A stretch of DNA of 64,000 nt, taken from contig JBBISH010000003.1 of NCBI GenBank assembly GCA_037441385.1, forward strand, positions 102,045-166,044. The letters are read 5' to 3'. This document shows, piece by piece, positions 42,528-58,639 of this stretch (its first letter is position 1; each line of letters opens with the position of its first letter). The stretch is from Myxococcales bacterium (GTDB lineage Bacteria > Myxococcota_A > UBA9042). The translations under genes and the position numbers were made by a program. The notes under the pieces were generated by a model. That model worked only from the letters and a program-made list of their open reading frames with translations. It had not been told where the DNA came from and ran no database searches.

Positions 42528-45500
42528 ATGTCTGTGATTCAGCACTTGGTGAGCATTGTGGCCGCGACCGCCCTGCTGGCCAGCTGTGGCGAAAACGTGG
42601 TCGCGTCCGGCGGCATCACCGCCAGCGACGCCAAGGCCGATCTGCAGGTGGTCGATCTGCCGCAAGCGGCGAGCGTCGACAAGGCGGCCTGGCAGTGCCC
42701 CGGCGGATACGGCTGCCCCTGCGACAGCGACAGCACGTGCACCGCGTCGGGTTTGTGTGTCACCGGGGGCAGCGGCAGCGTGGCCGGAGGCGCGCCGCAC
42801 TGCGCAGTCCCTTGCGCCGAGGGCTTTTGCGCGGCAGGCGAAGTGTGCCGGCAGCTCGCGGGCGCCAAAGGCGGCGAGTGGTGGTGCGTGGCCAGCGGCG
42901 GGCACCTGTGCGACCCCTGCGCCAAGTCGGAAGATTGCGCCGCCCCCGGCCACAGCGGCGCGCGCTGCGTGGACTACGGCAGCGAGGGCCGATTCTGCGG
43001 CGTGGCGTGCCAAGGCGATGCGGAGTGCGACGCCGGCTATCACTGTGGCCAAGCCACCACCGCCGAAGGCAACACCAGCCTGCAATGCCTGAAGAATGGG
43101 GCCAAGCCGACCCAGTTCGGTGTGTGCGAGTGCAGCGCACGGGCCAAGGCGCAAAAACTCGAGACGGTGTGCGGCCAGGGCAGTTGCAAGGGCAAGCGCA
43201 GCTGCGGCGAAGCGGGCCTGTCCGCGTGCTCGGCGGCCGCTCCGGCCAGCGAAGTGTGCAACGGCAAGGACGACGACTGCGACGGCCAGACCGACGAAAC
43301 CTCGTGCAGCGACAACAATCCCTGCACAACCGACACGTGCGACCCCGCCAAGGGCTGCAGCCACGCGCCAGACGACGGTGCTCCATGCTCGGACAAGAAC
43401 GTTTGCACGGACGGCGACGTGTGCGATGGCGGTAGCTGCAAGCCGGGAGCGGCGCTGGACTGTGGCGACAGCAACCCTTGCACCAGCGAGTCGTGCGATC
43501 CGGTCAAGGGCTGCCAGACCAAGTTCGCCGACGGCACGGCGTGCGACGACGGCGATCCATGCACCAAGGACGACGCGTGCAAAGGGGGAAGCTGCAAGCC
43601 AGGAGCGCCGTTGGTTTGCGACGACAAAGACCCCTGCACCGCCGACAGCTGCCAAAGCGGCAAGTGCACGGCCACGCCGGTGGAGGGGGCGCCCTGCGAC
43701 GACGGCAGCGCTTGCACGGGCGCCGACACGTGCACGGGCGGCACCTGCGCGGGTACACCCTTTGTCTGCGACGACAACAATAGCTGCACCACGGACAGTT
43801 GCGACGCCTCGAAGGGCTGCGTCTTCTTGCCCGGCCCGCCCACGGCCTGCGACGACGGCAACTTGTGCACCACCGGCGAGGCCTGCAAAGGCGGCAGTTG
43901 CACCGGCGGTACCACCCAGCCCTGCCCCAACGACAACCCGTGCGCCGTCGCAACCTGCCAACCGTCTACCGGCCAGTGCGCCATCAAGAAGAAGTCCGAC
44001 GGCGCCCTTTGCAGCGACGGCAAGACCTGCACCAGCGGCGACCACTGCGCCACCGGCGCGTGCGTGGCGACCCTGAGCTGCGACGACCAAGACGCGTGCA
44101 CCGCGGATGTTTGCGGGGTCAACGGCAACTGTGCCCATCTGGCCATCAGCACTGGCAGTTGTGCGCCGCCGTCGTGCGCAGGCAAGGACTGCGACGACAA
44201 GAACCCATGCACCGTCGACGGTTGCAACGCCTCGGGCTGCACCCACGCGGCGGCGCTTGGCCAGACCTGCGACGACGCCAACGCTTGCACCCTGGGCGAC
44301 GTTTGCGGCAGCGACGGGACCTGCATGGGCGCGGCGGCGATCTGCACCGACGACAACCCGTGCACGATCGACGCCTGCGACGCGACCAAGGGCTGCAGCA
44401 ACGACCTGAGCACACTGCCCTGCGACCTGGGCAACTGCCAAGCGGGCCTGTGCGAGTCGGGCAAATGCGTGGCAACGGGCCAAGCCGGCTGCGACGACCA
44501 GAATCCTTGCACAACGGACAGTTGCGAGGTAGGTGGTTGCGTCCACGCCCCGGCCACCGACGGCGCCAGCTGCGACGACGGCCTAAAGTGCACGAGCGGC
44601 GACGCGTGTAAGTCGGGGCAATGCGCAGGCACGGCGCTCGATTGCACGGCGACCGGCAACGTTTGCCTGATTGGCTCGTGCGACGTCAGCACGGGCAAGT
44701 GCGCGTTTGCCAACGCCAGCGACGGCAAGGCGTGCGATGACGGCGACGCCTGCAGCAAGGCCGACACGTGCACGGCGGGCGCCTGCGGCGGCAGCCAAGT
44801 CGACTGCGACGACAAGAACCCTTGCACGGCCGACACTTGTGACAAGACCGCGGGTTGCCAGCACGCCAACCTGGCCGACGGCGCCACCTGCAGCGACAGC
44901 GATGCTTGCACCGTCGGCGACTCTTGCAGCGGCGGCAAGTGTGGCGGGACGACCAAGGTTTGCGACGACAAGAACCCTTGCACCACAGATGGTTGCAACT
45001 TGTCGGTCGGCTGCACCACCACGGCCGTCAGCGACGGTCAGGCCTGCGACGACGGCGACCCATGCACCCAAAGCGACGCTTGCAGCAGCGGCAAGTGCAC
45101 CGGCACCGTAGCCCCCGACGCCGTGACCACGCTCGCCGGAGCCGGGATCGCCGGATTTGCCAACGGCAAGGGCGATCAGGCCAAGTTCACCCTGCCCTCC
45201 GCGATCGCGGTCGGAAGCGACGGCACGCTCTACGTCGCCGACGCCGCCAGCAACGGCGCTTATATCCGCAAGGTCATGCCAGACGGGACCGTGAGTCTGC
45301 TCGCCGGCAAAGGCCTGAGCGGTTTTGCCGACGCCACGGGGAGTTCCGCACAGTTCTGGGCGCCGGCAGGCTTGGCCGTGGACGCGTCGGCCACCGTGTA
45401 CGTGGCAGACCGCTTCAACCAGCGCATCCGCAAGATCAGCGCGGCCGGCGTGGTGTCGACGCTGGCCGGCGACGCCCCGGACCCCGGATTCTTGGACACC

Positions 45501-46136
45501 AAGGCCCAAGGCGGCTACCAGGACGGCCAGGGCAGCGCGGCGCTCTTTGACGAGCCTGCCGGCATCGCGCTGGGGCCCGATGGCAAGCTGTACGTGACCG
45601 AGATCGCCAACCACAAGGTTCGCATCGTCGCCATGGACGGCACGGTGACCACCCTGGCCGGCAGCAGTCAAGGCTACTTGGACGGCGCGGTCAACGCGGC
45701 CAAGTTCGATTCACCGCAAGGCATCGCCGTCGCCAAGGATGGCACCGTGTACGTGGCCGACACGGGCAACAACCGCATCCGGGCCATCGCCAGCGGCCAA
45801 GTGACCACCTTTGCGGGCACGGGCATTGCCGGCTTTGTCGACGGACCGCTCCTGGACGCCTGCATCGCGGCGCCGGCCGGCCTGAGCCTGGGCAGCGATG
45901 GCACGCTGTACCTGGCCGACTCGGGCAACAACGCCCTGCGCGCCCTGAGCAGCACGGCGGTGACCACATTGGCCGGCATGGGCAGTGCCGGTTTTGGCGA
46001 CGACACTCCGTCCAAAGCCAAATTCAACGCGAGCTTGGGCTTGGTGTGGGCCAGCAACGGCCTGTGGTACGTGGCGGACACCCAGAACTATCGGGTGCGC
46101 AAGCTGCTGTCGCCCGCCCTGGCTTGCAAACCGTAG
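42528..46136 (+). CDS. giant lipoprotein: CxDxNPCTxDxC Cys-rich repeats + C-terminal NHL beta-propeller
   Basis: Lipobox LASC; many CDDxNPCT repeats; PxGIAV..LYVADxxNxRIR blades. Confidence 0.88.
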   Translation: MSVIQHLVSIVAATALLASCGENVVASGGITASDAKADLQVVDLPQAASVDKAAWQCPGGYGCPCDSDSTCTASGLCVTGGSGSVAGGAPHCAVPCAEGFCAAGEVCRQLAGAKGGEWWCVASGGHLCDPCAKSEDCAAPGHSGARCVDYGSEGRFCGVACQGDAECDAGYHCGQATTAEGNTSLQCLKNGAKPTQFGVCECSARAKAQKLETVCGQGSCKGKRSCGEAGLSACSAAAPASEVCNGKDDDCDGQTDETSCSDNNPCTTDTCDPAKGCSHAPDDGAPCSDKNVCTDGDVCDGGSCKPGAALDCGDSNPCTSESCDPVKGCQTKFADGTACDDGDPCTKDDACKGGSCKPGAPLVCDDKDPCTADSCQSGKCTATPVEGAPCDDGSACTGADTCTGGTCAGTPFVCDDNNSCTTDSCDASKGCVFLPGPPTACDDGNLCTTGEACKGGSCTGGTTQPCPNDNPCAVATCQPSTGQCAIKKKSDGALCSDGKTCTSGDHCATGACVATLSCDDQDACTADVCGVNGNCAHLAISTGSCAPPSCAGKDCDDKNPCTVDGCNASGCTHAAALGQTCDDANACTLGDVCGSDGTCMGAAAICTDDNPCTIDACDATKGCSNDLSTLPCDLGNCQAGLCESGKCVATGQAGCDDQNPCTTDSCEVGGCVHAPATDGASCDDGLKCTSGDACKSGQCAGTALDCTATGNVCLIGSCDVSTGKCAFANASDGKACDDGDACSKADTCTAGACGGSQVDCDDKNPCTADTCDKTAGCQHANLADGATCSDSDACTVGDSCSGGKCGGTTKVCDDKNPCTTDGCNLSVGCTTTAVSDGQACDDGDPCTQSDACSSGKCTGTVAPDAVTTLAGAGIAGFANGKGDQAKFTLPSAIAVGSDGTLYVADAASNGAYIRKVMPDGTVSLLAGKGLSGFADATGSSAQFWAPAGLAVDASATVYVADRFNQRIRKISAAGVVSTLAGDAPDPGFLDTKAQGGYQDGQGSAALFDEPAGIALGPDGKLYVTEIANHKVRIVAMDGTVTTLAGSSQGYLDGAVNAAKFDSPQGIAVAKDGTVYVADTGNNRIRAIASGQVTTFAGTGIAGFVDGPLLDACIAAPAGLSLGSDGTLYLADSGNNALRALSSTAVTTLAGMGSAGFGDDTPSKAKFNASLGLVWASNGLWYVADTQNYRVRKLLSPALACKP

Positions 46137-46218: not shown

Positions 46219-47055
46219 ATGTACCCAGCAACTTGGCAGGCACCCCAGTTCAGCGGCTGGCAGCAAGCTGCCGTCTGGCGCCGTGCTGGAGTCTGGCTGT
46301 GCGCGGCCACCTGGGCCGGCCTGGTGGCTGGCTGCGACGTGCCCAGCGCCACCAACGTGGTGGCCCCGGCGCTGGCTGAAGCCGCAACCCCACTAGAAGA
46401 CGGGGTAATCGAGGCAGTGCTGGTGTTTCGCCCAGGGCCGGTCAAAGCGCCCAAGGTGGCCAAAGCCGAGCCCAAGCCTGAACCGAAGCCCGAACCCAAG
46501 CCAGAGCCCAAGCCGACCGGCCCTAGCCCCGAGCTGATCGCCGCCCAGGCAGAACTTGCCCGCATCCAGGGAGATACGTCGGCGATCGCCGCCGCCGAAG
46601 CCGCCCTGCGCGCCGCGGAGGCCGAGGCCCGTGCCGCCACCGCCCCCGTTGAGGCCGAGCTAAAGGGTGTGGAGCGCAAGATCCAAGAGCTCGCGCTGAG
46701 CATGGAGATCGAGTCGTCGCAAGTACGGCAAAACAAGTGCTGTTCGATGTGCGGCGAAAGCAAGACGGAGATCGAGCGGCGCGGCGAGCCGTTCGAGACA
46801 CACCTGACCAATGTCAAGGGCACCCTCGCTGAGTGCAAGCCCGGCAAGCTCGAGGCCGTGCAAAAGAAATACGCCGGCCAGCTGGAGCCGCTCAAGCAGC
46901 GGGCGGCCGAGCTCCGCGGCAAGGTGGGGCCCGCTGTGCAGGCCGCTCAGGCCAAGGTCAACGCGGCCAAGACGGCACTGGACGCCGCCAAGAACGAGCG
47001 CGCCCAGAAGCTGGCGGCGGCCCAGGCCAGGGTCGACGCCGCATCGCACAAATAG
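46219..47055 (+). CDS. coiled-coil lipoprotein with EPKP repeats and CCxxC motif
   Basis: Lipobox VAGC; heptad Ala/Glu/Lys pattern; CCSMC; start uncertain. Confidence 0.7.
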   Translation: MYPATWQAPQFSGWQQAAVWRRAGVWLCAATWAGLVAGCDVPSATNVVAPALAEAATPLEDGVIEAVLVFRPGPVKAPKVAKAEPKPEPKPEPKPEPKPTGPSPELIAAQAELARIQGDTSAIAAAEAALRAAEAEARAATAPVEAELKGVERKIQELALSMEIESSQVRQNKCCSMCGESKTEIERRGEPFETHLTNVKGTLAECKPGKLEAVQKKYAGQLEPLKQRAAELRGKVGPAVQAAQAKVNAAKTALDAAKNERAQKLAAAQARVDAASHK

Positions 47056-47057
47056 AC

Positions 47058-47198
47058 GGGATCATACGCACCCCACCTGATTCGCGCCTGTATGGCTTTT
47101 CTGACCCGTTCTGCAACTGGCGAGAATCAGGCGGGGACCCCGGTTCGGGCCCGAAAGATTGCCCATGTTTTCGATCCGATTCGGACGGAACTGGGATC
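47058..47198 (-). mobile_element. dispersed element copy 4 (GGGATC direct repeats)
   Basis: Reverse-complement match to copy 1. Confidence 0.8.
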
Positions 47199-47212
47199 GA
47201 TTGGGGTCCGGG

Positions 47213-48670
47213 CTACAGCCCGACGATCACCTTGAGCAAGCGCTCGATCGTGGTGCCGTAGGGCGGGTTGAGCAGGCCGGCGGCGTTGACGCGGCTCTGA
47301 TAGAACACGCCCTTGTTGTGCGAAAACGCGTCGAAACCGGTCTTGCCGTGGTACGCACCCATCCCCGCGGGGCCCACGCCGCCAAACGGCAGGTCCTCTT
47401 GGGCGATGTGCAGGATGGTGTCGTTGACCGTGGCGCCGCCCGAAGTGGTGCGCTCGAGGACGGTGGCGGCGCGACCGCTATCGCGATCGAAGTAATAGAG
47501 CGCCAGGGGCCGCGGCCGGGCGTTGACGTAGGCGATCGCCCCGTCCAGGGAGTCGTACTCGACGAGCGGCAAGATCGGCCCAAAAATCTCGTCTTGCATG
47601 ACGGCCATGCTGTCTTTGGCCCCGACCACCAAGGTCGGCGCCAGCTTGCGCGAGGCCGCGTCGAAGGTTTCGTTGCCGGGGTTGAGCTCGATGAGCTGAG
47701 CGCCACCGGCGCGCGCCTCGGACAGATAGCCCTGCAACCGCGCGTACTGGCGGTCGTTGACGATGGAGCAATAGTCGGGACTGGCGACGAGGGTCGGCCG
47801 GATACGGGCCAGAACGCTTTGACAGGCTTGGGCAAAGGCCTGGGTTTGACCGCGCGGCACCAGCACGTAGTCCGGCGCGATGCAGGTCTGGCCGGCGTTG
47901 AGCAGCTTGCCCACCAGGATCCGCTCGGCAGCCTTGTCCAGCGGGTAAGAAGAGTGAACGATCACAGGCGACTTTCCGCCCAGCTCCAGCGTGACTGGCA
48001 CCAAGTTCTCGGCCGCGGCCTTCATGACGGCGTGGCCGACGCGGGTGGAACCGGTGAACAGGATGTGGTCCAACGGCAACTTGCACAGCGCCTCGGCCAC
48101 TTCGGGCCCGCCCTGCACCACCTGCACCTGATCGGGGGCAAAAGCCTCGCTGATCATCCGCGCCAGCAGCTCGGAGGTCCGCGGCGTGAACTCGGAGGGT
48201 TTGATGATCACGCGATTGCCGGCGGCCAGCGCACACACCAGCGGCGCCAAAGCTAGCTGCACCGGGTAGTTCCAAGGCGCCAGGATGGCCACGACGCCCA
48301 GTGGCTGCGGAACGACCTTGTTGCGACCCGGCTGAAAAGCCCAGTGCACGGGCATGGTGCGCGGCCGCGCCCAGCGCGCCAGGTGTTGGCGAGCGTGCTT
48401 GAGGCCGGCCAGGGTGGGAAACAGGTCGGCCAGCAGGGTCTCGTGCCGCGAGCGCGTGCCAAAGTCGGCATCGATCGCGGTCACGATGTCGTCGACGTGG
48501 GCGCGAATCACCCCTTCCAGCGCGTCGAGCCAGCCGCGGCGCTGCGCCACGCTGGGCGGCGCCTCGGTCCGGCTCAGCTGATGCATCTTGGCGAACGTCG
48601 TGCGCAAAGCCGTCAAGGCCGGCGCCTCTTCGCGGTGGTCGTCCAGGTGGGCAAGCTTGGCGGTGCTCAT
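47213..48670 (-). CDS. coniferyl-aldehyde-dehydrogenase-like NAD-dependent aldehyde dehydrogenase
   Basis: PWNYP, KPSE, FTGST, LELGGKSP, GQTCIAPDY, EIFGP. Confidence 0.92.
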   Translation of the reverse strand: MSTAKLAHLDDHREEAPALTALRTTFAKMHQLSRTEAPPSVAQRRGWLDALEGVIRAHVDDIVTAIDADFGTRSRHETLLADLFPTLAGLKHARQHLARWARPRTMPVHWAFQPGRNKVVPQPLGVVAILAPWNYPVQLALAPLVCALAAGNRVIIKPSEFTPRTSELLARMISEAFAPDQVQVVQGGPEVAEALCKLPLDHILFTGSTRVGHAVMKAAAENLVPVTLELGGKSPVIVHSSYPLDKAAERILVGKLLNAGQTCIAPDYVLVPRGQTQAFAQACQSVLARIRPTLVASPDYCSIVNDRQYARLQGYLSEARAGGAQLIELNPGNETFDAASRKLAPTLVVGAKDSMAVMQDEIFGPILPLVEYDSLDGAIAYVNARPRPLALYYFDRDSGRAATVLERTTSGGATVNDTILHIAQEDLPFGGVGPAGMGAYHGKTGFDAFSHNKGVFYQSRVNAAGLLNPPYGTTIERLLKVIVGL

Positions 48671-48727
48671 GGGTGCTCCTGCAGAGAAGACGCGTGCCAA
48701 GAAGATGCCGCAATCCGCAGGGTTTGG

Positions 48728-49363
48728 CTAGACCCGAATCAAGACTTGCTGCATTTCGTCTGCATTTTCAACCACATACGGCGCAGCAGCCGCCTCCGCG
48801 GGCCGGAAGCCCCAGGTCACCCCCAGCGGCCGCATCCCCGCGTTCTGCGCGGTTTGCAGATCGACGGCAGTGTCGCCGACGAACCAGCAATCACCGGGCG
48901 GCACCCCAAGTTTTTGGCTCAGGTACAGGGCCGCCGCCGGATCGGGCTTGCGTGGCCAGCTGGGTCGCTGACCAGCCACCTCGCGCCACGGAACCTTGGG
49001 AAAGTAGTGATGAACCAAGGCGACGGTTGCCTCGTGTGGCTTGTTGGACAGGACCGCGAGCGGCAACCCGGCGCCGGCCAACTGCGCAAGAGCCTCCCCG
49101 ATCCCCGGATACACGCGGGTCTGGTCGTACATCCGCTGAAGATACAGGGCCTTGTAGCGAGTCAGCCACTCCGGGCGAAGCTGGGCCGGGGCGACGGCGC
49201 GCTGCAGCAGCATCTCGGCCCCCTCGCCCACCATCGCATAAAAACTCGCGAGCGGGTGGCCGGGCAGCCCCACTTCGGCGAGCACCTGGTTGACCGCGGC
49301 GGCGATGTCGCCCACCGAGTCGAGCAAAGTGCCGTCTAGGTCAAAGATCACGGCGCGCGGCAT
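48728..49363 (-). CDS. HAD phosphatase (phosphoglycolate phosphatase-like)
   Basis: FDLDGTL, SNK, KPDP, VGD...D. Confidence 0.9.
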   Translation of the reverse strand: MPRAVIFDLDGTLLDSVGDIAAAVNQVLAEVGLPGHPLASFYAMVGEGAEMLLQRAVAPAQLRPEWLTRYKALYLQRMYDQTRVYPGIGEALAQLAGAGLPLAVLSNKPHEATVALVHHYFPKVPWREVAGQRPSWPRKPDPAAALYLSQKLGVPPGDCWFVGDTAVDLQTAQNAGMRPLGVTWGFRPAEAAAAPYVVENADEMQQVLIRV

Positions 49364-49381
49364 CGCAACTCCACAGCAGGG

Positions 49382-51187
49382 CTATCCCGCGGCCTTGCGG
49401 ACCAAGAGCATCAAGGCCAGCGGCAAGGCAAACGCGGCCACGGTGGCGAGCGCGCCCCAAAGGCGCAGCCGGGCGGCCACATCATCGCGACCGGCGGCGT
49501 GGGCGCGGTACTCGCCGATCACTTGCAGCGTCGCCAGGCCGATCGACGCATAGGCCGCGAAATACGACCAATCGACCACCGTCAGGTAGCCGACTTCGGG
49601 CAAGTGCCCGGCGGCGTTGACCTGCAACTCCACCGCACACAGCAGGGCCAGCACGGTCAGCAGGAGCTTGGCATCCAGCTTCTCGGCAGGGATCAGGCTG
49701 GCCGCCAACGCCATCAGCACCATGAGGAGCAGCGGCGCCAAGTCGGCCACGGCAAAGCGCAGCACCTCGCGGCGCACTTCCACGACGAAATTGTAGCGGC
49801 TGAAGAATTCGCTGGGCCCGTAGCGAGCCTTGACCTCTTCGGAGCGAACCGACTGAAGCCGCCAATCCTGCAGCGAAAACCCCGGCCCCAGGCGCTGGTC
49901 CAGGGTCAAGCCAGCCTCGGGATGCCAGCGGGTCTCGCAATGGAAGACCAACTGGCCGAACTGCAGCAGCGGGTGCTCGAAGGCAAGCTCGAACCGTTGC
50001 GTATCAAAGGGATAGGCGTGCAAATCGAACTGACTGCGCGCCCGCCCGTGCATGCGCCAGTTCAGGCTGTGCCAGGGGCCGTGCGGCTCGTAGCCGTTGG
50101 GCGTGACCTCGACTTCGTCGGCGTTCATGACCTCGAAAGGCCGCGGATCATCGGGCCCCATGCGCGGGTCCAGCCAGCGCAGTTCAAGGGTCGCGTCAAA
50201 GTTGAAGGTGCCTTTTTGCAGGTCCACGGCGCTGATGGCGATCAGCCACACGGTCACGCGCACGTCGATCGGCTTGTCCAGCGGGCCACCGCGCGCATAG
50301 GCATCGGCCGCGCCGGGGTGCAAGGGCAGCGGCGACGGCATCGCGGCCAGGGCGCGCTGAATTCCGGCCAGGCCGCGGTCGCCTTGCCGCAGCAGGTCCG
50401 GCTGGCCCCACATCGCCTCGACCAAGTCGTCGACCGCGAGCCGCGGCAACCCCGAACGACCAACGAGCACTTGCGGCACCGACAGTGTCACGACCTTCTT
50501 CTCGCCCAGCTGCTGAAATTGGCCGCGGTCGATGGTGGCCACCTGCCAAGGCCAGGCCGACTCAGGCAGTTCTTTGGCGCTGGGCAAGCTCAGCCAACGA
50601 TCGCCCGCGGCCAGGGCCGCCGTCACGCTCACGTCCTCTGGAGCCACCACCACGAACGCGGCGTCGGCCTGACCGCTGTGCAGGGCCGCCAACGGATCCG
50701 GCGTGATCTGAAGGGGCACCGAGGCGCGCGGCACCCCGGCATGTTCCAGCAGCACCAGCAGCGCTTCGCGGTCGCCCGTCGCCGCCACAGCAACGCGCTT
50801 TCCTTGCATATCGCGCACTTCGGCAAGCTCGTGGCGGGTCAACACGGCCAGGTAGCTGGTGTGCAAGACGGCCAAAGCGCGCAAGTCCGGGTGCGGCGCC
50901 TGGAACCGCCCCGTGCCCAGCCACGCAGCCCGAGCGACATCGGCGCGCACCAGCGCCAAGGCATCGCCTGAACTGGCCAGAAGTTGCTGGATGTTGTCTA
51001 CGCTTCCGCCGGTCGTGGTGGGCGTCACCGCCTCGCCCGCGGGCACGGCCGCCGCGGCCTGCGCCACACCCGCGGCCAATCGAGCCTCGGCCTTGCCTGC
51101 CGGCCCGCAGTACAGCGGCATGGCAACGGCCGCTGGCGCGATCCACAGCGCGCACCACAGCGCAACGCCGAACAGCAGGGTCTTCAT
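49382..51187 (-). CDS. TAXI-type solute-binding domain fused to a pentameric ligand-gated ion channel
   Basis: TGGSVDN and PLHPGA TAXI motifs; RWLDPR, FDLHAYPFDTQ Pro-loop, four TM helices with LPEVGYLTVVD. Confidence 0.85.
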   Translation of the reverse strand: MKTLLFGVALWCALWIAPAAVAMPLYCGPAGKAEARLAAGVAQAAAAVPAGEAVTPTTTGGSVDNIQQLLASSGDALALVRADVARAAWLGTGRFQAPHPDLRALAVLHTSYLAVLTRHELAEVRDMQGKRVAVAATGDREALLVLLEHAGVPRASVPLQITPDPLAALHSGQADAAFVVVAPEDVSVTAALAAGDRWLSLPSAKELPESAWPWQVATIDRGQFQQLGEKKVVTLSVPQVLVGRSGLPRLAVDDLVEAMWGQPDLLRQGDRGLAGIQRALAAMPSPLPLHPGAADAYARGGPLDKPIDVRVTVWLIAISAVDLQKGTFNFDATLELRWLDPRMGPDDPRPFEVMNADEVEVTPNGYEPHGPWHSLNWRMHGRARSQFDLHAYPFDTQRFELAFEHPLLQFGQLVFHCETRWHPEAGLTLDQRLGPGFSLQDWRLQSVRSEEVKARYGPSEFFSRYNFVVEVRREVLRFAVADLAPLLLMVLMALAASLIPAEKLDAKLLLTVLALLCAVELQVNAAGHLPEVGYLTVVDWSYFAAYASIGLATLQVIGEYRAHAAGRDDVAARLRLWGALATVAAFALPLALMLLVRKAAG

Positions 51188-53361
51188 CGCCAAGCCTCCG
51201 GAAGTTGCAGGCCAAATTGCTGCACCAAGAAGGTCAGCCGATCCGTGGCTTCGTCGATCAGCTTGGTGGTGGGCTTGCCGGCACCATGCCCGGCGCGGGT
51301 CTCGACACGGATGCGCACGGGCGCTGGCCCGCCCTGGGCAGCTTGCAAGGCCGCGGCAAACTTGAAGGAATGCGCTGGCACCACGCGGTCGTCGTGGTCG
51401 CCGGTCAGAATCAACGTCGCGGGATAGTGGGCGCCAGCCTTGAGGTTGTGGAGCGGGCTGTACTGGTACAACCACTGAAACGCCTTGGGATCCGCGCTGC
51501 TACCGTACTCTGGGACCCACGCCCAGCCAATGGTGAACAAGTGGTAACGCAGCATGTCCATCACGCCCACGGCCGGCAGCGCCGCGCCGAACAACTCGGG
51601 CCGCTGCGCCAGGCAGGCCCCGACCAGCAGGCCGCCATTGCTGCCGCCGGCAATGGCCAGGCGCTTCGCCGACGTCCACTTTTCGCGCGCCAAGAGCTCG
51701 GCCACAGCCATGAAGTCGTCAAAAACGTTCTGCTTCTTGTCCAACTTGCCCGCATCATGCCAGGCCTCGCCCAATTCGGCACCGCCGCGCAGCACCGCCA
51801 CGGCCAGCACCCCGCCTGCCTCGACCCAGGCGTGTAGGTCGGGTTTGTAAAACGGCGTGATCTCGACAGAAAACCCGCCGTAGCCATACAGGTAGGCCGG
51901 CGCCGTCCCATCGCGTGGCAAGTCGCGGCGCGCCGTGACAAAAACCGGCACCTTGGTACCATCTTTGCTTGTAGCGTAGCGCACTTGCGTGGTGTAGCGG
52001 TCGGCCGGCAAGCCGTGCTTTGCGTCGAAGCGGACGGCAAGCTCGCGCCGGTCCAAGTTGGCGTGGAAGATCCGCGTGGGACTCAAAAAGTCGACGTAGC
52101 CAAAGAACAAGTTGGGGTCACCGGCGTGCCCCGAGATCCCAGCGACCGAGCCAAGCCGCGGGAATTCCGGCGCCGGCAACGGCTTGCCCTGGTAGTCGAT
52201 GAACGCCAACTGGTGCGAGGCCTGCACCAAGCGGCTCACCACGATGCCCTGCCCGGCGAGCACCGCCATCGACAGCGTGGAATCGGCCTGGCCCTGGACC
52301 TGGCGCCATCCCTGCGGCAGCGGACCGGGAGCCTGATCCGTGTCGATCGTCGCGCCGATGCTCAGGTCGACGACCAGGAGACGACCGCGCGGGGCTGCCC
52401 AGTCGCTCCGCAAATAGAGCTGACCGTCGCGCACGCCTGCGACCTCGAACGAACCGCCAAAGCCGCGTGCCAGTTGGCGATTGGGACCCAAGCCCGTGGC
52501 CGTGATGGCGCGGACGTCCAGGCCATTGCGCGATTCGGCGCCGCGCCACGTGCTGAGCAGCCACCAGCGGCCGTCGTCGCTGACCTCGACCCCAAAGCCC
52601 CACTCGGGTTGCGCCGGGTTGTGATGGACTACCTCGTCGGCGGATTGCGGCGTGCCCAGCGTATGGAAGCAGACCTTCTGGAACTTGTTGACAGCCGTAA
52701 GCGTTTCGCCCGGCCTGGGCGCATCGTAGCGGGCGTACCAGAAGCCCTTGCCGCTTGGATGCCACGCGATCGAACTGAACTTGACCCATTGTAGTACGTC
52801 GGGTCGATCGGCGCCGCTGTCGACGTCGCGTACGTGGATTTCGTTCCAGTCCGAACCGCCGCTGGCGAGCGCATAGCCTACCAGCTTGCCGTCGTCACTG
52901 GGCGAAAAGCTCTGCAGCGACACGGTTCCGTCGCCGGCCGCACGGTTGGGATCAAGCAGTACCCGGCAGGCCTGCTCGCCTTGCGGCGCCCAGCAAAGCA
53001 CCGCTTGATTCTGCAACCCATTGTTATGCCGCCAAAATGCCCGACCACCCCGCACTGCCGGCGGCGTCTCTTTGGCGTAGTCCCAGATCGTGGCCAGGTG
53101 GCGCGCCAAGGCGGCCCGTTGCGGCACCGTATCCAGCAACGCGCGCGTCGCCGCGTTCTGCGCTTGCACCCAGGCCTGGGTCTCGGGGCTGTCTTGCTCG
53201 AGCCAGCGGTACGGATCGGCAACCTTTTGGCCATGGTAATCGTCGACTTGGTCCCCCTTGCGCGTGGCGGGCGCGGTCGCATCGGCAGCGTGCGCCGGCG
53301 GCGCCGGCGTGGCCAACGCAAAGACGATCGCAGGGGCAAGCAGCAACGGCAGAGCGCGCAT
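51184..53361 (-). CDS. secreted prolyl oligopeptidase (S9A)
   Basis: Signal peptide; DPYRWLE, GGSNGG, HDDRV, AGHGAG. Confidence 0.95.
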   Translation of the reverse strand: MRALPLLLAPAIVFALATPAPPAHAADATAPATRKGDQVDDYHGQKVADPYRWLEQDSPETQAWVQAQNAATRALLDTVPQRAALARHLATIWDYAKETPPAVRGGRAFWRHNNGLQNQAVLCWAPQGEQACRVLLDPNRAAGDGTVSLQSFSPSDDGKLVGYALASGGSDWNEIHVRDVDSGADRPDVLQWVKFSSIAWHPSGKGFWYARYDAPRPGETLTAVNKFQKVCFHTLGTPQSADEVVHHNPAQPEWGFGVEVSDDGRWWLLSTWRGAESRNGLDVRAITATGLGPNRQLARGFGGSFEVAGVRDGQLYLRSDWAAPRGRLLVVDLSIGATIDTDQAPGPLPQGWRQVQGQADSTLSMAVLAGQGIVVSRLVQASHQLAFIDYQGKPLPAPEFPRLGSVAGISGHAGDPNLFFGYVDFLSPTRIFHANLDRRELAVRFDAKHGLPADRYTTQVRYATSKDGTKVPVFVTARRDLPRDGTAPAYLYGYGGFSVEITPFYKPDLHAWVEAGGVLAVAVLRGGAELGEAWHDAGKLDKKQNVFDDFMAVAELLAREKWTSAKRLAIAGGSNGGLLVGACLAQRPELFGAALPAVGVMDMLRYHLFTIGWAWVPEYGSSADPKAFQWLYQYSPLHNLKAGAHYPATLILTGDHDDRVVPAHSFKFAAALQAAQGGPAPVRIRVETRAGHGAGKPTTKLIDEATDRLTFLVQQFGLQLPEAWR

Positions 53362-53530
53362 CGGGGTCCTGGCGGTCGAGTACCGACCTTGAAGCCCGAT
53401 GGTGGCCCGGCCCCAGGGCTGTTGTCCAGCCGACCTGCGGGCGATCGTGCGGCTGCGACCGGCGACTGCCCCGCGGCGCCGCCATCTGCTACCGTGCGGC
53501 CCGGCCCAACGTGGGCGGGTAGGGGCAGCC

Positions 53531-54298
53531 GTGGTCGAGCCAGTATTGATTGGGGCGGGTCGGGTTGGTTTGGCGCTGGCGCGGCGAGCGGCCGAGCGGG
53601 GCCTGAAAGCGCCGTTGCTGGGCCGCAGCGACGGCTGGGACGTGCTAGACGCGTCGCCCGGGCAGCCGGTCGCCTTGTGTGTCCGCAACGACGACTTGGA
53701 CGCCGTGCTCGACCGCGTCCCGCCGCACCGGTGGCCGGACTTGGTCTTTCTGCAAAACGGGATGCTGCGCGACTGGTTGCGCGCGCACGACTTGGCCGCG
53801 GCGACGCGCGGGCTGCTGTTCTTTGCGGTGGCCGACCGCAGCGCCGATGCCCAACCGGGCGGAACCACGCCCCTATGGGGTCCCCATGCGCAATCGCTGG
53901 CGACGTGGCTGGCGGCGCTGGGCTTGCCGGCCGAGGCAGTGGCCGAACGCCCGTTCGCCGATGTGGAACTGGAGAAGCTGCTGTGGAATTCGTGCTTGGG
54001 CGTGCTCTGCCAAGCGCACGGCTGCACCGTCGCGCAGGTGGCTGGGGACCACGCCGAGCAACTAAAGGCGCTGGTTGGCGAATTGGCGGCGCTGGCGCGT
54101 CCCGCCTTGGGGGCCCTGGCCGACGATCAAGGCCTCAGCGAACGCATTGCCCGCTACAGTCTGCAGTTGGGCGACTATCGCGCGGCGGTCAAGGAGTGGC
54201 GTTGGCGCAACGGTTGGTTCGTCGCAGAGGCTGCCCGGCGCCGCCTGGCCTGCCCGCTGCACACCGCGCTGCTGACTCAGGCTGGGCTCCCGATCTGA
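53531..54298 (+). CDS. compact ketopantoate-reductase-like Rossmann protein
   Basis: IGAGRVG, VRNDDL, FLQNG, EKLLWN. Confidence 0.65.
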   Translation: MVEPVLIGAGRVGLALARRAAERGLKAPLLGRSDGWDVLDASPGQPVALCVRNDDLDAVLDRVPPHRWPDLVFLQNGMLRDWLRAHDLAAATRGLLFFAVADRSADAQPGGTTPLWGPHAQSLATWLAALGLPAEAVAERPFADVELEKLLWNSCLGVLCQAHGCTVAQVAGDHAEQLKALVGELAALARPALGALADDQGLSERIARYSLQLGDYRAAVKEWRWRNGWFVAEAARRRLACPLHTALLTQAGLPI

Positions 54299-54418
54299 CG
54301 GGCAGTCCGCAGGGTTGGTGCGCGCGCGGACCTTGGGACTGGTTGTGCACCGGCCGAGTCTCCGGTCGCGCCCCAGGAAAGAGACGGAGCAGCCGACCGG
54401 ACCTCGACCGATTCGGGA

Positions 54419-57400
54419 CTACTTGCAGGCGCACTTGACGTCGATCTGGTAGTCCTCGACCGCGCCTTGGTAGCCGTCGACCACGATGAAGTACTTGTTG
54501 CCCTTGGTGCCGGCAAAAGTCTTGGTGGCGGTGTTGCCCATCATCAGCGCGTGGCTGGTGCAAGTGGCGGCCCCACAAGTCTTGCTGCCGTCCAAAATGA
54601 ACAGGTCCAGGTACTTGCCGCTCGACGTCGACGTCTTCTTGACCGTCACGGTGACGTCGCCGGTGCACGTCGCATCGTACGTGTAGGTGTACTCGGGGCC
54701 GGCGTAGTCGGCCTCGGCGCCGTCGGTGCACTGCCAGCTGTCGATGACTTTGGTGCTGCCAGCGCCGCCGTTGCTGTATTGGTCGCTGCCGCCGCAGGCA
54801 AGGTCGTAGTCGGGCACGCACTGGGCGGCCGCGGGCTTGCAGGCGGCATCGGCGGCGCAGTCGCTGTCGGCGCAGTCGGTCTTGCCGTCCTTGTCGTCGT
54901 CGATCTTGTCGGTGCAGTTGGTCTCGGTGGTGGGCGCGGCGCAGCTGCAGTCGATCTTCAGCGTGTAGTTGCCGTTGTAGTTGTTGTAGCCGTCGGCGAC
55001 CACGTAGTAGGTCTGGCCCTTCTTGGCCGTCCAGGTGGTCTTGGCGGTGGTGCTGCTCATCAGGCCGTGGACCAGGCAGGCGTTGCTGGCGCAGCTCTTG
55101 GCGGCGTCCAGCACGAACAGGTCGATGTAGCCGGCGCTGGTCGAGGTCTTGGTGAGCGTCGCCGTGACCGGGCCGTCGCAGGCGGCGGTGTACGTGTAGG
55201 TGTACTCGTTGCCGGTCTCGCCGGTCATGCTGCCGTCGGCGCACTGCCAATCGGCGATGGCCTTGGTCGAGCCGGTGCCGTTGTTGCTGTAGCTGTCCGA
55301 GTCGCCGCAGCTCATCGGGTAGTCGGCCTTGCACTGGGTGGCGGCCAGGCAGCTGGGATCCTTGGCGCAGTCGTTGTCGGCGCAGTCGGCCTTGCCGTCC
55401 TTGTCGTTGTCGATCTTGTCGCTGCAGTTGGTTTCGGTCGCCGGGGTGGCGCAGGCCACGTCCTTGGTGCAGTCGCTGTCGCTGCAGTCGGTCTTGCCGT
55501 CCTTGTCGTTGTCCACCTTGTCAGTGCAGTTTGCCTCGGTGCCCGGGGGAACGCAGGCAACGTCCTTGGCGCAGTCGCTGTCGGCGCAGTCGGTCTTGCC
55601 ATCCTTGTCGTCGTCGACCTTGTTGGTGCAGCTGGTTTCCTTGGTGACACCGCACTTGCAGGTGGTCTTGATGCTGTAGTTGCCGGCGTAGGCGTTGTAG
55701 CCGTCGACCGCGATGCCCAGCTTCTGACCGGACTTGACGGTGATCGTCTGGGTCGCGGAGGTGCCGCTCATCAGCGAGTGGGCCACGCACGCGTTGCTGC
55801 CGCAGGCCTGGCCGCCGTCGAGCAGGAACAGATCCAGGTAGCCGCTGGTGGTCGAGGTCTTGGTCAGCGCCACGGTCAGTTCGCCGTCGCACGAGGCGGT
55901 GTAGTCGTACACGTACTCGGGGCCGGTCTCGCTGCCGACCGTGCCGTCCTTGCAGACGTAGGTGCTGACGGCCTTGGTCGAACCCATGCCGCTGTTGTTC
56001 CACAGATCCGAGGTGTTGCAGTTCAAGGTCGACGCCGTCTGGCAAGCGCAGGCGCCCTTGCCCGAGCAGTCCGGGTCCGCGCAATCCACCAAGCCGTCGG
56101 CGTCGTTGTCGACCTTGTCGGTGCAAAGCGTTTCGCCCACGGGCAGCTGGCAAGCCACGTCCTTGGCGCAATCGCCATCGGCGCAGTCGGTCAGGCCGTC
56201 CTTGTCGTCGTCGAGCTTGTTAGCGCAATTGGTCTCGGTGGTGCCGGTGGTGCAAGCAGTGTCTTTGGCGCAGTCGCTGTCGGCGCAGTCGGTCTTGCCA
56301 TCCAGGTCGTTGTCCAACTTGTCGCCGCAGATCGTCTCGACCGTGGGGGCGCAGGCCAGATTGGTCGCGCAGTCACTGTCGGCGCAGTCCAACTTGCCGT
56401 CTTTGTCGTTGTCGATCTTGTCGGTGCACGACGTCTCGACCGTGGGGGCGCAGGCCAGGTCCGCGGCGCAATCCGAGTCCAGGCAGTCGACCAGCTTGTC
56501 GCCGTCGTTGTCCACCTTGTCGGTGCAGTTGGTCTCTTTGCCGCCCGCGCAACCGCAGGTGATCTTCAGGCTGTAGTCCGAGGCAAAGCCCTGGTAGCCG
56601 TCCACGACGATGAAGTACTTGCCGTCCTTCTTGGCGGTGAACGTCTGGGTGGCCTGGGTCGACGACATCAGCGCGTGGGCGATGCACGAGGAAGCCTGGC
56701 AACCCGTGACCGCATCCAGGATGAACAGATCCAGGTAGCCGGCCTTGGTGCTCTGCTTGATGAGGGTGACCACCACCGGGCCGTCGCAGGCGGCCGTGTA
56801 GCTGTAGGTGTACTCAGCGCCCGTTTCGCCGTTGACCTTGCCGTCCTTGCACTCGTAGGCGCTCAGGACCTGGGTCGAGCCTTTGGCGTTGTTGGCGTTC
56901 TTCTCGGTGCCGCCGCAGGTCGAGACGCCCGCGTCGACGCACTTGTTGGCGGCGCACGCCGGGTCGGCCTTGCAGTCGCTGTCGCCGCAGTCGGTCAGGC
57001 CGTCCTTGTCGTCGTCCACCTTGTTGCCGCAGTTGGTTTCTTTGCCGGCGCAGGCGGGATCCTTGGCGCAGTCGCTGTCGGCGCAGTCGGTCTTGCCGTC
57101 CAGGTCGTCGTCGACCTTGTCGGCGCAGTTGGTCTCGGTGGTGGGGGCGGCGCACTGCTTCTTGCAGAGCGTGCCCACTTCGCCCACGCAGACGTCGTCC
57201 CACGCCGTATCGCAGCAGTACGAGTCGGCCTTGCACACGGTGGCGGCGCAGGGATCGCAGTTGGCGGTCAGGGGATCGGCGCTCTGGGCGCAGACATCGC
57301 ACTTGCTGGCGCACTTGGCGTCTTTGGCGCAGTCGCTGTCGCTGCAATCGGTAAAGCCGTCCTTGTCGTCGTCGACCTTGTTGGCGCAGTCGGCCTCGGG

Positions 57401-58591: not shown

Positions 58592-58639
58592 GATATTTCT
58601 CCAAGACAGCCAGCACTTGGGCGCCAAATGCGGGCGAAG

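Follow-up and report, generated by a model that had tools for sequence, protein, structure and literature searches.

The 64-kb window, meaning the whole stretch of DNA analysed here, encodes on its minus strand a protein (P0002, 49382..51187) that joins a TAXI-type solute-binding domain to one subunit of a ligand-gated ion channel of the pentameric kind (pLGIC). The gene comprises 601 codons and a stop codon at 49384-49382, and is delimited by its open reading frame, its start, its domain matches and an AF2 model. The longest open reading frame at the locus spans 49382..51475 (minus strand). The ATG at 51187 is a plausible start, with a GGAGG 9 nt 5′ of it and an ATGA overlap with the stop codon of the upstream gene. 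A preliminary description, made from the sequence alone, had read the same coordinates as one frame with a signal peptide, a TAXI domain and a full pLGIC. The 601-residue frame has no internal stop, and all the motifs quoted in that description occur in the translation: TTGGSVDN (58-65), GKRVAV (129-134) and PLHPGAADAY (288-297) in the N-terminal half, and VRVTVWL (309-315), RWLDPR (337-342), FDLHAYPFDTQ (387-397), EVRRE (470-474) and LPEVGYLT (529-536) in the channel half. The fusion gene is real, and the observation is confirmed. The TAXI part has a GC3 of 0.82, the channel part one of 0.86. A plus-strand shadow frame (49499-50971) was rejected as a gene; its GC3 is lower (0.73) and it has no Pfam match.

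The first 22 residues (51122..51187, minus strand) read as a signal peptide, probably cleaved after A-V-A. The AF2 model places a helix at residues 2-15 with lower pLDDT (75-79), and dN/dS in this segment is 0.5-0.9, unlike that of the mature protein.

Three neighbouring genes lie on the same strand. Upstream, a secreted prolyl-oligopeptidase-family (S9) peptidase of 725 amino acids (51184..53361) has a start, a signal peptide and matches to Peptidase_S9_N and Peptidase_S9; its TGA stop overlaps the ATG of the channel gene, an arrangement kept in all six loci with a peptidase neighbour. A HAD-family hydrolase of 211 amino acids (48728..49363; HAD_2, Hydrolase) follows 18 nt after the channel gene and is phosphoglycolate-phosphatase-like, but under the curated cut-off. 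Next comes an aldehyde dehydrogenase of 495 amino acids (47213..48700; Aldedh, 284.5 bits), for which the top-scoring NCBIfam model is MdlD-like (346 bits, below the 550 required). Both downstream genes are syntenic in L001-L004 and L008, but because their NCBIfam matches are generic or below cut-off, no ligand can be read from them. A scan of 46800-54600 gave one promoter-like and six terminator-like sites, against 0.6 and 5.2 expected. Neighbourhoods beyond the six peptidase-linked loci are different and include a TetR with an aldehyde dehydrogenase-like gene, a multihaem cytochrome and large repeat proteins.

The partner of a TAXI protein is a TRAP permease of the fused DctQM type, whose gene usually lies next to it. 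The preliminary description saw no such permease, and Pfam likewise finds none among the 37 large open reading frames of the window; none occurs among 38 neighbours scanned at 14 of 20 related loci.

The TAXI domain and its pocket

Residues 23-300 (50288..51121, minus strand) form a TAXI-type clamshell domain, as judged by profiles, PDB matches and Foldseek. Both profiles used to check the proposed identity exceed their cut-offs: Pfam NMT1_3 covers residues 51-297 with 96.2 bits (cut-off 27, E 3.5e-27), and NCBIfam TRAP_TAXI (TIGR02122) scores 90.2 bits (cut-off 84.35). The TAXI proteins 1us4, 8s4j and 9ibo in the PDB match this half at E ~1e-9, and the predicted two-lobe alpha/beta Venus-flytrap fold superposes on VcGluP (9ibo) with a TM score of 0.81 and an rmsd of 3.1 Å over 295 columns. 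TAXI/NMT1_3 binding proteins are placed in cluster F (PMC11574862). The domain departs from its family in form: instead of a free or lipid-anchored periplasmic protein of 300-350 amino acids, it is covalently joined to a channel subunit of 301 amino acids.

The TAXI half is the least conserved part of the fusion protein in every case. Its dN/dS is 0.080, 0.169 and 0.149 in three pairwise comparisons, against 0.04-0.06 in the channel's extracellular domain (ECD). Because these values are still low (0.08-0.17), the domain is taken to be under purifying selection, maintained and functional.

In VcGluP the key ligand residues are Tyr45 and Gln93, together with Ser75 and Glu125 (PMC11574862). This glutamate-type set is not present in the window protein. 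Gln93 is replaced by R81, Glu125 by S111 and Tyr200/Met201 by a pair of valines, while the Tyr45 loop is absent; Ser75 is retained as S62, but this position varies across the clade (A, D, E, G or S), as does H109 (H or G). In contrast, R81, R86 and a cleft-flanking G-T-G-R-F segment are invariant in 12 of 12 fused relatives. These substitutions indicate a pocket of the Myxococcota clade, to which the window protein belongs, that has been remodelled around the invariant R81, and therefore a ligand other than glutamate. The association with glutamate in the preliminary description thus does not carry over to this clade. A different small, probably anionic, molecule is the more likely ligand; pocket positions besides R81 vary within the clade, so no single ligand is implied. 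Ligand binding by the TAXI domain may also have been lost here.

The channel half

The last TAXI helix runs through a junction, R299-x-G-P-L-D-K-P306 (50270..50293, minus strand), into strand beta1 of the ECD. Of the nine positions at residues 298-306, five are the same in 12 of 12 fused relatives; relative to its length, no other stretch of the protein is conserved as densely. The periplasmic beta-sandwich that follows (residues 301-473; 49769..50287, minus strand) is supported by phmmer, AF2 and Foldseek, with model strands at 307-322, 327-338, 356-366, 372-384, 396-404, 413-417, 442-455 and 461-473. It leads into a four-helix transmembrane domain (TMD; residues 474-601; 49385..49768, minus strand), supported by AF2 helices and by phmmer alignment to GABA-A alpha1, in which M1 spans 475-498, M2 504-528, M3 537-564 and M4 568-600. 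A short turn links M3 to M4, and the chain stops once M4 is complete, leaving no cytoplasmic output domain in the model.

Profile searches treat this half less generously than its fold does. Neur_chan_LBD scores 21.4 bits (cut-off 26) and LGIC_1 42.9 bits (cut-off 500), so that the curated cut-offs are missed, and Neur_chan_memb has no Pfam match in the fusion protein. Even so, the LGIC_1 match has an E-value of 3.9e-11, and phmmer against the PDB aligns residues 303-555 with the GLIC/GABA-A chimera 5osa at 1.4e-11, followed by DeCLIC, ELIC and GLIC. A search of the ESM Atlas with the channel half returns bacterial Neur_chan clusters only (score 0.94). The proposed assignment to the pLGICs consequently fails at the curated thresholds and holds on E-values and on the GLIC fold; by sequence and model, the channel half is a divergent member of the family rather than a non-member.

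The architecture of the family, a beta-sandwich ECD followed by four transmembrane helices, is found by both AF2 and Foldseek. A Pro-loop with an invariant Pro and Asp, and a pre-M1 Arg that pairs with the Asp, are pLGIC hallmarks (PMC4795631). In the window protein the Pro-loop, the equivalent of the Cys-loop, lies at residues 385-395 (50003..50035, minus strand; Y392-P393-F-D395), and the pre-M1 Arg is R473; both features are shared with 71 of 71 relatives, as P393, D395, R473 and the M1 proline P485 occur in every one of the 71 aligned channel halves. The coupling elements are thus intact from the Pro-loop YPFD through the pre-M1 Arg and M1 Pro to the P-x-x-G-Y-x-T of the M2-M3 loop.

The ECD had been described as short, with a ligand site that might be lost. 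It proves to be of GLIC size: together, ECD and TMD make up 301 amino acids that superpose on the entire 311-residue GLIC chain (TM 0.79-0.80), and only the beta2-to-beta5 connection is shortened in the model. Its dN/dS is also the lowest in the gene, and of all parts of the protein the ECD is the best conserved. Because it is full-size and so well conserved, and because channel-only relatives exist, loss of its sensing site is not indicated.

The pore-lining helix M2 (49604..49678, minus strand) is the most invariant stretch of the protein. Its register is fixed by a gapless phmmer alignment to M1-M3 of GABA-A alpha1, which reproduces the manual placement of Asp at -2′ (D505) and Glu at 13′ (E520); K507 lies at 0′, L509 at 2′, L513 at 6′ and L516 at 9′. 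In the window's clade L2′, L6′, L9′ and E13′ are invariant (L2′, L6′ and E13′ counted, in 30/30 rows), whereas other clades mostly have G2′, T6′ and A13′. The acidic residue at -2′ is more widespread, being D in all 30 rows of the window's clade and D or E in most others. With leucines at 2′, 6′ and 9′ the hydrophobic stretch is unusually long, and the pore may not conduct.

Relatives and the role of the clamshell

The same continuous fused frame occurs at 10 of 20 related genome loci, and sequence searches recover 12 full-length fused proteins (P0003-P0013 and P0019) and one that is N-terminally truncated (P0014). NCBI lists P0003, a homologue with 91% identity, as 'TAXI family TRAP transporter solute-binding subunit', and JGI gives similar names to P0007-P0009, because only the TAXI half passes curated cut-offs. 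A second, more distant fused clade has about 14 representatives at 50% clustering, which combine a channel half with NMT1_3 matches of 50-188 bits (above 100 in 13 of the 14) that end 0-3 residues from the start of the channel match. The canonical glutamate-type pocket (Ser/Gln/Glu/Tyr) is present in 10 of 13 members. One of them, P0035, is predicted to adopt the same fold (pLDDT 92.6, pTM 0.78), with TM scores of 0.89 to glutamate-bound 8u79 and 0.79 to GLIC, and is 32-33% identical to TtGluBP.

Other relatives carry the channel without the clamshell. Three such loci (L003, L004 and L008) have the same order of peptidase, channel, HAD hydrolase and aldehyde dehydrogenase, with the same ATGA overlap, and no TAXI gene lies within ±8 kb of them. 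In L003 the channel-only gene occupies 7845-8924. In the channel tree the channel-only relatives are nested inside the fused clade. With groups named after the tree had been obtained, AU tests are borderline, with p 0.039 for the channel-only rows as one clade and p 0.055 for the fused rows as one clade. The two fused clades are not joined in the channel tree, at a weak node (support 56); in the TAXI tree, the Myxococcota domains fall inside a grade of second-clade domains (support 91, unstarred). Since it is absent from nested relatives that share the neighbourhood, the TAXI half looks accessory; it is evolutionarily dispensable and therefore cannot be an obligatory gate.

The AF2 model of all 601 residues, built from a 71-row alignment, has a mean pLDDT of 94.5 and a pTM of 0.86, a value that would be hard to reach with arbitrary placement of two domains. 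Docking prediction between the TAXI domain (24-300) and the channel (301-601) scores 0.50 (runs 0.58, 0.50 and 0.50), graded as weak support, against 0.00 for the best of three controls. At least 98% of contacts are common to the runs, and partner pLDDT is at least 80. Of 157 solved complexes 116 attain the pass mark, as do 2 of 215 mismatched pairs; scores no higher than 0.60 were given to only 18 of the 157 complexes and to both of the mismatched pairs that passed. These counts hold only roughly here given the custom alignment used. By this calibration a weak pass is wrong in more cases than it is right, except where the guess had been likely to begin with. The proposal that the channel is gated or modulated through a clamshell thus gains weak support for contact between the two domains, and as to the rest keeps its standing as an inference.

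The explanation preferred here, with a probability of about 0.55, is an exported polypeptide in which a TAXI clamshell modulates a complete GLIC-like pLGIC through a short conserved junction. The signal peptide would export the fusion as a single chain, placing the Venus-flytrap domain, via a junction of about eight residues, on top of the channel subunit. From what is known of the family, an inner-membrane channel would form from five subunits and carry five clamshells on top, and the ring of aspartates at -2′ would confer cation selectivity. The ECD would itself be a sensor, with the TAXI domain as a modulator in an accessory role: when ligand closes the clamshell, the movement would pass through the short, rigid junction and the docked interface to the ECD and shift the gating equilibrium.

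It is doubtful, though worth some weight, that the TAXI domain binds no small molecule in the window's clade and instead caps the ECD in a structural or regulatory role, or perhaps offers a docking site to a periplasmic partner. The canonical pocket is mostly dismantled (the Tyr45 loop gone, Q93 replaced by Arg, E125 and S75 variable, Y200/M201 turned to V/V), conservation is lower in the TAXI half than in the channel, and the N-terminal domain of DeCLIC offers a parallel in that it speeds gating without being a solute-binding protein. However, a dN/dS of 0.08-0.17 and a complete two-lobe fold (TM 0.81 to VcGluP) speak for a domain that is maintained, and the invariance of R81, R86 and G-T-G-R-F fits a rebuilt pocket no less than it does an empty one. 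An unlikely alternative is a ligand relay, in which the TAXI domain would capture and concentrate a ligand and deliver it to the orthosteric site on the ECD, and the ECD would do the gating. We know of no hand-over of ligand from a solute-binding protein to a channel ECD. The residues that we take, by loop nomenclature, to occupy the classical ligand-site positions (W338, Y456, E404-H405 and R378) are invariant in 30/30 rows, as a relay would have it. A role of this kind for fused or operonic binding domains is proposed in the excerpted text of Tasneem et al. (PMC549065), but closure of a solute-binding protein buries the ligand (PMC11574862), relatives with the channel alone do without the TAXI domain, and a junction so short and conserved is better suited to mechanical coupling than to a swinging arm.

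That the protein acts as a receptor and not as an ion channel, with a non-conducting triple-Leu pore and the pLGIC scaffold only transmitting a conformational signal or anchoring the sensor, has a small probability: L2′, L6′ and L9′ are indeed invariant in the window's clade where other clades have G2′ and T6′, but M2 is the most invariant element, the charged rings D-2′, K0′ and E13′ make sense only for a pore, and the short M3-M4 turn and the C-terminus directly after M4 leave no cytoplasmic output domain. Even less probable is a binding protein, tethered to the membrane with its channel half as anchor, that supplies a TRAP or other transporter whose genes lie elsewhere. The public names of P0003 and P0007-P0009 imply a TRAP subunit, and TAXI domains fused to the transporter GltS exist (PMC12344293). 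Against this, the names mirror only the half that passes curated cut-offs, no TRAP permease was found among the 37 window frames or the 38 neighbours at 14/20 loci, the gating hallmarks are intact, and the supposed anchor would be the best-conserved part of the protein. Finally, adjacent genes joined by a sequencing error would be hard to reconcile with the same continuous frame in 10 independent genome assemblies, coding-type GC3 in both halves, a junction that is the most conserved stretch per length, and halves that AF2 packs confidently; the chance of such an assembly or annotation artefact is negligible.

Extending the modulated-channel reading to the whole set of relatives is more tentative. 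It is possible that TAXI-pLGIC fusions form a family of Venus-flytrap-gated, Cys-loop-type channels, in which an older clade is gated by glutamate or another amino acid, and the Myxococcota clade has been retuned and acquired a three-Leu/E13′ pore. If so, bacteria would have converged on the principle of ionotropic glutamate receptors (iGluRs) with an unrelated pentameric pore. The older clade, for instance P0035, would sense glutamate or an amino acid through its TAXI domain, while the clamshell of the window's clade would have been retuned to a new, probably anionic, ligand around the invariant Arg. Three Leu rings combined with a Glu ring at 13′ would make an unprecedented pore, and products of the translationally coupled secreted prolyl oligopeptidase could be the signal.

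Relation to known systems

The closest known architecture is that of the alpha-proteobacterial PBP-I (Peripla_BP_6 / ANF_receptor)-pLGIC fusions presented by Tasneem, Iyer, Jakobsson and Aravind in 2005 (PMC549065). These proteins, known only from genomes, resemble the window protein in carrying a periplasmic clamshell N-terminal to a bacterial pLGIC core, but the clamshell belongs to the type I binding superfamily instead of TAXI/NMT1_3; in the excerpted text of that paper, PBP-II-type proteins figure only as operon neighbours, not as fusions (PMC549065). The PBP-I architecture is also found among the relatives recovered here (P0055 and P0092), whose channel halves fall in a separate clade (four rows, support 97). 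The principle of the fusion had therefore been described by 2005, whereas literature searches on a TAXI-pLGIC fusion found no paper, in agreement with the earlier impression that it is uncharacterised. What is new is the TAXI variant, not the combination of a binding domain with a channel. Because its channel half lies below curated cut-offs and its relatives bear TRAP-subunit names, the channel is invisible in databases.

In DeCLIC (PDB 6v4a, 9fth), also a bacterial pLGIC, a large periplasmic domain at the N-terminus modulates gating, and the excerpted text of two papers states that DeCLIC is the only pLGIC in which such a domain is structurally known or characterised (PMC9897478, PMC12664993). 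Its channel half is related to that of the window protein (E 1.7e-9, and a Foldseek match). However, its N-terminal domain, according to these excerpts, consists of two jelly-roll lobes that bind Ca2+, unlike a solute-binding clamshell, and the whole-chain TM score is only 0.42.

GLIC (PDB 3eam) is the best structural match of the channel half, with TM 0.79-0.80 and rmsd 2.9-3.5 Å over the whole chain (for 6f0r_A, TM 0.80 and 2.9 Å over 316 columns). The two share a compact ECD without an N-terminal helix and, presumably, an acidic residue at -2′. Sequence identity is 17-18%, and the window protein differs in its shortened beta2-to-beta5 connection, two short helices in the loop-F region and a pore with L2′, L6′ and E13′, while GLIC has no extra domain.

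For the TAXI half, the comparison is with VcGluP and TtGluBP (8s4j, 9ibo, 1us4, 8u79), which share its fold and its TGGS, G-D and PLHPGA motifs. These are free periplasmic proteins that serve a TRAP permease, in contrast to the channel-fused domain of the window, and their key residues Y45 and Q93, respectively absent and replaced by Arg in the window protein, are kept by the second fused clade. TAXI-GltS fusions also place a TAXI domain N-terminal to a membrane protein outside the TRAP family, but the partner is an elevator-type Na+/glutamate symporter and not a channel, a word that occurs zero times in the paper describing them (PMC12344293). The window protein extends this recent evidence of TAXI domains at work apart from TRAP systems.

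It is not settled how accessory domains govern the gating of pLGICs, and the DeCLIC domain is not a ligand-binding clamshell. TAXI-pLGICs offer a tractable system in which to ask whether clamshell closure can drive a Cys-loop-type pore, with natural comparisons in the clamshell-less orthologues of the same gene context and in a sister clade with a glutamate-type pocket. In iGluRs and GluR0, closure of a periplasmic-binding-protein-type clamshell is coupled to a pore that is tetrameric, K+-channel-like and inserted within the clamshell. The likeness to the window protein is a functional analogy only, as its pore is pentameric, of Cys-loop type and placed after the clamshell; by that analogy, we infer a gating logic like that of an iGluR, or of the DeCLIC N-terminal domain, set on a Cys-loop-type pore.

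Two domains in one reading frame

The fusion gene P0002, defined by its ORF, start codon and domain matches, lies at 49382..51187 on the minus strand. Translation from the ATG at 51187, a plausible start with GGAGG 9 nt upstream, yields 601 aa with no internal stop. This bears out the single ORF of about 600 codons in the preliminary description, whose quoted motifs all stand in the translation where it placed them. In the longest minus-strand ORF, 49382..51475, the first 96 codons overlap the upstream gene in a different frame. The fusion gene resembles its neighbors in GC3 (0.82 in its first half, 0.86 in its second). An overlapping plus-strand ORF (GC3 0.73, no Pfam match) was rejected as a gene.

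The TAXI assignment made earlier is confirmed: the Pfam NMT1_3 profile covers residues 51-297 with 96.2 bits (cut-off 27), the NCBIfam TRAP_TAXI profile covers residues 28-297 with 90.2 bits (cut-off 84.35), and a phmmer search of the PDB recovers the solved TAXI structures 1us4, 8u79, 9ibo, 8s4j and 4ddd with E-values of 1e-9 to 6e-8. The expected pLGIC profile matches were borne out in part. Curated cut-offs are not reached by Neur_chan_LBD (21.4 bits; cut-off 26) or NCBIfam LGIC_1 (42.9 bits; cut-off 500), and the Pfam scan of P0002 gave no Neur_chan_memb match, but the E-values are significant: 3.9e-11 for LGIC_1 and, by phmmer against the PDB, 1.4e-11 for residues 303-555 with a GLIC/GABA-A chimera, 1.7e-9 for DeCLIC, about 1e-7 for ELIC and about 3e-6 for GLIC. 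The second half is clearly related to pLGICs despite its sub-cut-off profile scores.

An AlphaFold2 model built from a 71-row alignment (A2) has a mean pLDDT of 94.5 and a pTM of 0.86, with no segment below 50. In it, residues 23-300 form an alpha/beta domain and residues 307-473 contain eight long beta strands, after which come four helices (475-498, 504-528, 537-564 and 568-600). In Foldseek searches of the PDB, the first half superposes on the free glutamate-binding TAXI protein VcGluP (9ibo; TM 0.81, rmsd 3.1 Å, 295 columns), and the channel half on the whole GLIC chain 6f0r_A (TM 0.80, rmsd 2.9 Å, 316 columns) and on GLIC 3eam_A (TM 0.80). The extracellular domain (ECD) had been described as short. 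Its beta2-to-beta5 connection (residues 339-355) is contracted, but in the model superposed on GLIC the sandwich is otherwise complete; because the ECD and transmembrane domain (TMD) together span 301 aa versus 311 in GLIC chains, the shortness amounts to that connection. Two short helices (418-421 and 429-432) precede beta9 in the model.

Recurrence, descent and gene neighborhood

A word-indexed protein search found 17 proteins, P0002 included: 11 fused relatives of 588-621 aa (P0003-P0013), an N-terminally truncated relative of 499 aa (P0014), P0015-P0017 of 372-373 aa in which the channel half alone is covered, and one free TAXI protein. An exhaustive search of 1.84 billion representatives returned 2202 matches at E ≤ 1e-3, 304 at ≤ 1e-10 and 23 at ≤ 1e-30. 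Pfam, run on 27 of these, brought out a second fused group (P0022-P0031, P0034, P0035 and P0038), 27-34% identical to P0002 over the full length. Its NMT1_3 scores range from 50 to 188 bits, exceeding 100 in all members except one; eleven have a listed Neur_chan_memb match, and the channel halves of P0026 and P0038 were detected solely by a purpose-built HMM. The AlphaFold2 model of P0035 (pLDDT 92.6, pTM 0.78) has the same architecture as P0002, resembling the glutamate-bound Thermus thermophilus TAXI protein (TM 0.89, 32-33% identity) and GLIC (TM 0.79). In the genome collection, 20 loci carry a relative, with both halves matched in 10 and the channel half only in 10, and the ORFs enclosing the matches are continuous. 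A rival explanation holds that the fusion is an artefact; given the continuous fused ORFs at related loci, the second fused group and the P0035 fold, the fusion is real and recurrent. The locus titles are mostly Myxococcota, Myxococcales or 'Deltaproteobacteria' MAGs, with Proteobacteria/Pseudomonadota in three and 'uncultured Enterobacteriaceae' in three (L005, L006 and L010). The last label looks wrong: these loci have 66-72% GC, and their genes cluster with Myxococcota loci in both trees.

Other architectures occur among the channel relatives, some of which carry a C-terminal SBP_bac_5 or an N-terminal Peripla_BP_6 domain (Pfam). Among 158 sequences matching nearly the whole channel, 39 have 200 or more additional residues at the C terminus, and 4 carry extra N-terminal sequence other than TAXI. 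The C-terminally extended relatives (P0049, P0052 and 37 others) are about 800 aa long; in P0049 and P0052, the two scanned with Pfam, the extension is a family-5 solute-binding domain (SBP_bac_5) after M4, and the eight included in the tree group together with good support. TAXI-channel fusions also come in a second kind: P0111 (704 aa) combines a TAXI domain with a K+ channel pore (Ion_trans_2) and RCK, TrkA_N and Castor/Pollux domains.

Every comparison shows lower conservation in the TAXI half than in the ECD or TMD; for instance, identities to P0002 are 75, 90 and 88%, respectively, in P0004, and 36, 50 and 55% in P0008. Nei-Gojobori dN/dS for the window against loci L001 and L002 is 0.08 and 0.17 for the TAXI domain, versus 0.04 and 0.06 for the ECD, 0.05 and 0.10 for the TMD, and 0.9 and 0.5 for the signal peptide. 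Selection thus preserves the TAXI domain, less strictly than the channel. Across 12 fused relatives, invariant positions number 26/274 in the TAXI domain, 35/167 in the ECD, 28/128 in the TMD and 5/9 at the junction (residues 298-306).

When 71 channel halves were placed in a quick maximum-likelihood tree, 30 rows formed a Myxococcota clade (support 100) with 20 fused rows, among which 10 channel-only rows are placed at three or more points; another 18 rows, 13 of them fused, form a clade of their own (support 99). Post hoc AU tests were borderline for the channel-only rows as one clade (p 0.039) and for the fused rows as one clade (p 0.055). Since the TAXI-domain tree broadly parallels the channel tree inside the Myxococcota clade, an old fusion followed by one or several losses would fit these data.

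The channel gene is preceded by an S9 prolyl-oligopeptidase-family peptidase of 725 aa with its own signal peptide (51184-53361, minus strand); after it, on the same strand, come HAD hydrolase and aldehyde dehydrogenase genes. This four-gene set is shared with L001 and L002 in fused form, and with L003, L004 and L008, which are channel-only and 55-57% identical in the channel half; it is absent from the other 15 related loci. Six TAXI queries found no match within ±8 kb of L003, L004 and L008. The L003 protein passes from its signal peptide through about 35 residues to G-K-P-I-D-V-R-V-T, with beta1 starting as in P0002. The peptidase TGA and channel ATG overlap as ATGA at all six loci with the peptidase neighbor (window, L001-L004 and L008), with or without the TAXI domain, which suggests that the periplasmic peptidase and channel are translationally coupled.

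Other genes in the window are also of note. P0164, a 1420-aa ORF with a lipoprotein-like signal (54419-58681, minus strand), consists of about 25 acidic Cys-rich repeats (C-x-D-x-x-D-x-D-x-D-G-x-x-D-C-x-D-x-D-C) with 4-5 copies of a beta domain, each some 110 aa long, scattered among them. This ORF matched no Pfam family at 1e-3, and it accounts for the AT skew near -0.3 between 54 and 58 kb. An 875-aa ORF (7053-9680, plus strand) joins TonB_C, CarboxypepD_reg, Plug and a TonB-dependent receptor barrel; provided that its start is placed correctly, this is an uncommon arrangement. A 1234-aa NHL/Dicty_CTDC repeat protein (42432-46136, plus strand) shares 70% identity and synteny with its L002 counterpart; L011, L012, L016 and L020 have similar repeats close to their channel genes.

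Ligand pocket, pore and proposed mechanism

In the VcGluP study, Y45 and Q93 are key determinants of glutamate binding, with S75, E125, Y200, M201, H123 and G156/D157 as further pocket-lining residues (PMC11574862). A phmmer alignment of P0002 with 8s4j (chain index equal to the paper number minus 28) places S62 at S75, R81 at Q93, H109 at H123, S111 at E125, G138/D139 at G156/D157, V179 at Y200, V180 at M201 and A182 at G203. P0002 lacks an equivalent of the Gly-rich Tyr45 loop, G-P-A-G-K-A-E standing in its place. R81 is kept in 13/13 rows of the window's clade with a residue there, and S62, H109 and S111 vary. The second fused clade keeps Ser/Gln/Glu and a G-x-x-G-G-x-Y loop in 10/13 rows, with P0024, P0026 and P0029 departing. 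Judged by these residues, the window's clade has a rebuilt TAXI pocket, and the second seems to carry, on its pLGIC, a TAXI domain of the glutamate or amino-acid type.

The weight given to the Pro-loop Pro and Asp and the pre-M1 Arg as pLGIC hallmarks follows PMC4795631. P393, D395, R473 and the M1 proline P485 occur in 71/71 aligned channel halves, and Y392, P530, G533 and Y534 are almost invariant; at the sequence level, the hallmarks are intact. M1-M3 aligns without gaps to GABA-A alpha1 (phmmer), whose Arg and conserved Leu we take to be 0' and 9' by convention. M2 residues 505-520 (window 49628-49675, minus strand) then read D505 -2', K507 0', L509 2', L513 6', L516 9' and E520 13', in agreement with the Asp and Glu positions proposed beforehand. 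D505, K507, L509, L513 and E520 are invariant in 30/30 rows of the window's clade, where 9' is Leu in 25 and Val in 5; other clades have mostly D/E, Q/R, G, T, L and A at these six positions. By analogy with other pLGICs, the acidic residues at -2' point to selectivity for cations. A pore that combines Leu at 2' and 6' with Glu at 13' is unusual, and we know of no characterized pLGIC with this combination and L/V at 9'.

In P0002, a tight covalent link connects a secreted TAXI clamshell with a pLGIC subunit that is complete and well conserved. We propose that it would form a homopentameric inner-membrane cation channel, with gating tuned by ligand-dependent closure of five TAXI domains. The ECD would be a sensor in its own right, because no other part is as conserved and because it suffices in channel-only relatives. 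A defined TAXI-ECD arrangement is indicated by the pTM, the conserved junction and a weak pass in docking prediction of the TAXI domain against the channel half (custom alignment; score 0.50, best of three controls 0.00; contact agreement between runs at least 98%, partner pLDDT at least 80). The docking mark is reached by 116/157 solved complexes and 2/215 mismatched pairs; passing scores of 0.60 or lower are seen in only 18/157 solved complexes and in both passing mismatches.

Several less likely rival explanations bear on this proposal. The TAXI domain, with its rebuilt pocket and fixed R81, might be a ligand-free structural cap; it might also be a relay delivering ligand to an ECD site. 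P0002 might also be a non-conducting receptor; here the unusual pore stands beside the acidic -2' ring. Finally, P0002 could be a tethered binding protein serving a distant transporter; as noted beforehand for the window, a TRAP permease is lacking (none among 37 ORFs by Pfam), and none was found among 38 neighbors scanned at 14/20 related loci.

Comparison with known systems

The channel half of the TAXI-pLGIC family is absent from public annotation, because the 91%-identical homolog of P0002 bears only the name 'TAXI family TRAP transporter solute-binding subunit'. No paper on a TAXI-pLGIC fusion was found in full-text searches of open-access articles; this agrees with the earlier view that the fusion is uncharacterized. 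A paper on a TAXI-GltS fusion makes no mention of channels (PMC12344293). In Jaiteh et al. (2016), terminal domains were omitted and such associations are described as "only evidenced at the genome level" (PMC4795631). The DeCLIC papers present DeCLIC as the sole pLGIC with a characterized N-terminal domain (PMC9897478, PMC12664993). Tasneem et al. (2005) described periplasmic-binding-protein domains fused to pLGICs and proposed that fused or associated domains of this sort aid ligand sensing (PMC549065). The principle of fusing a binding domain to a pLGIC is therefore already known, and it is the TAXI variant that appears new.
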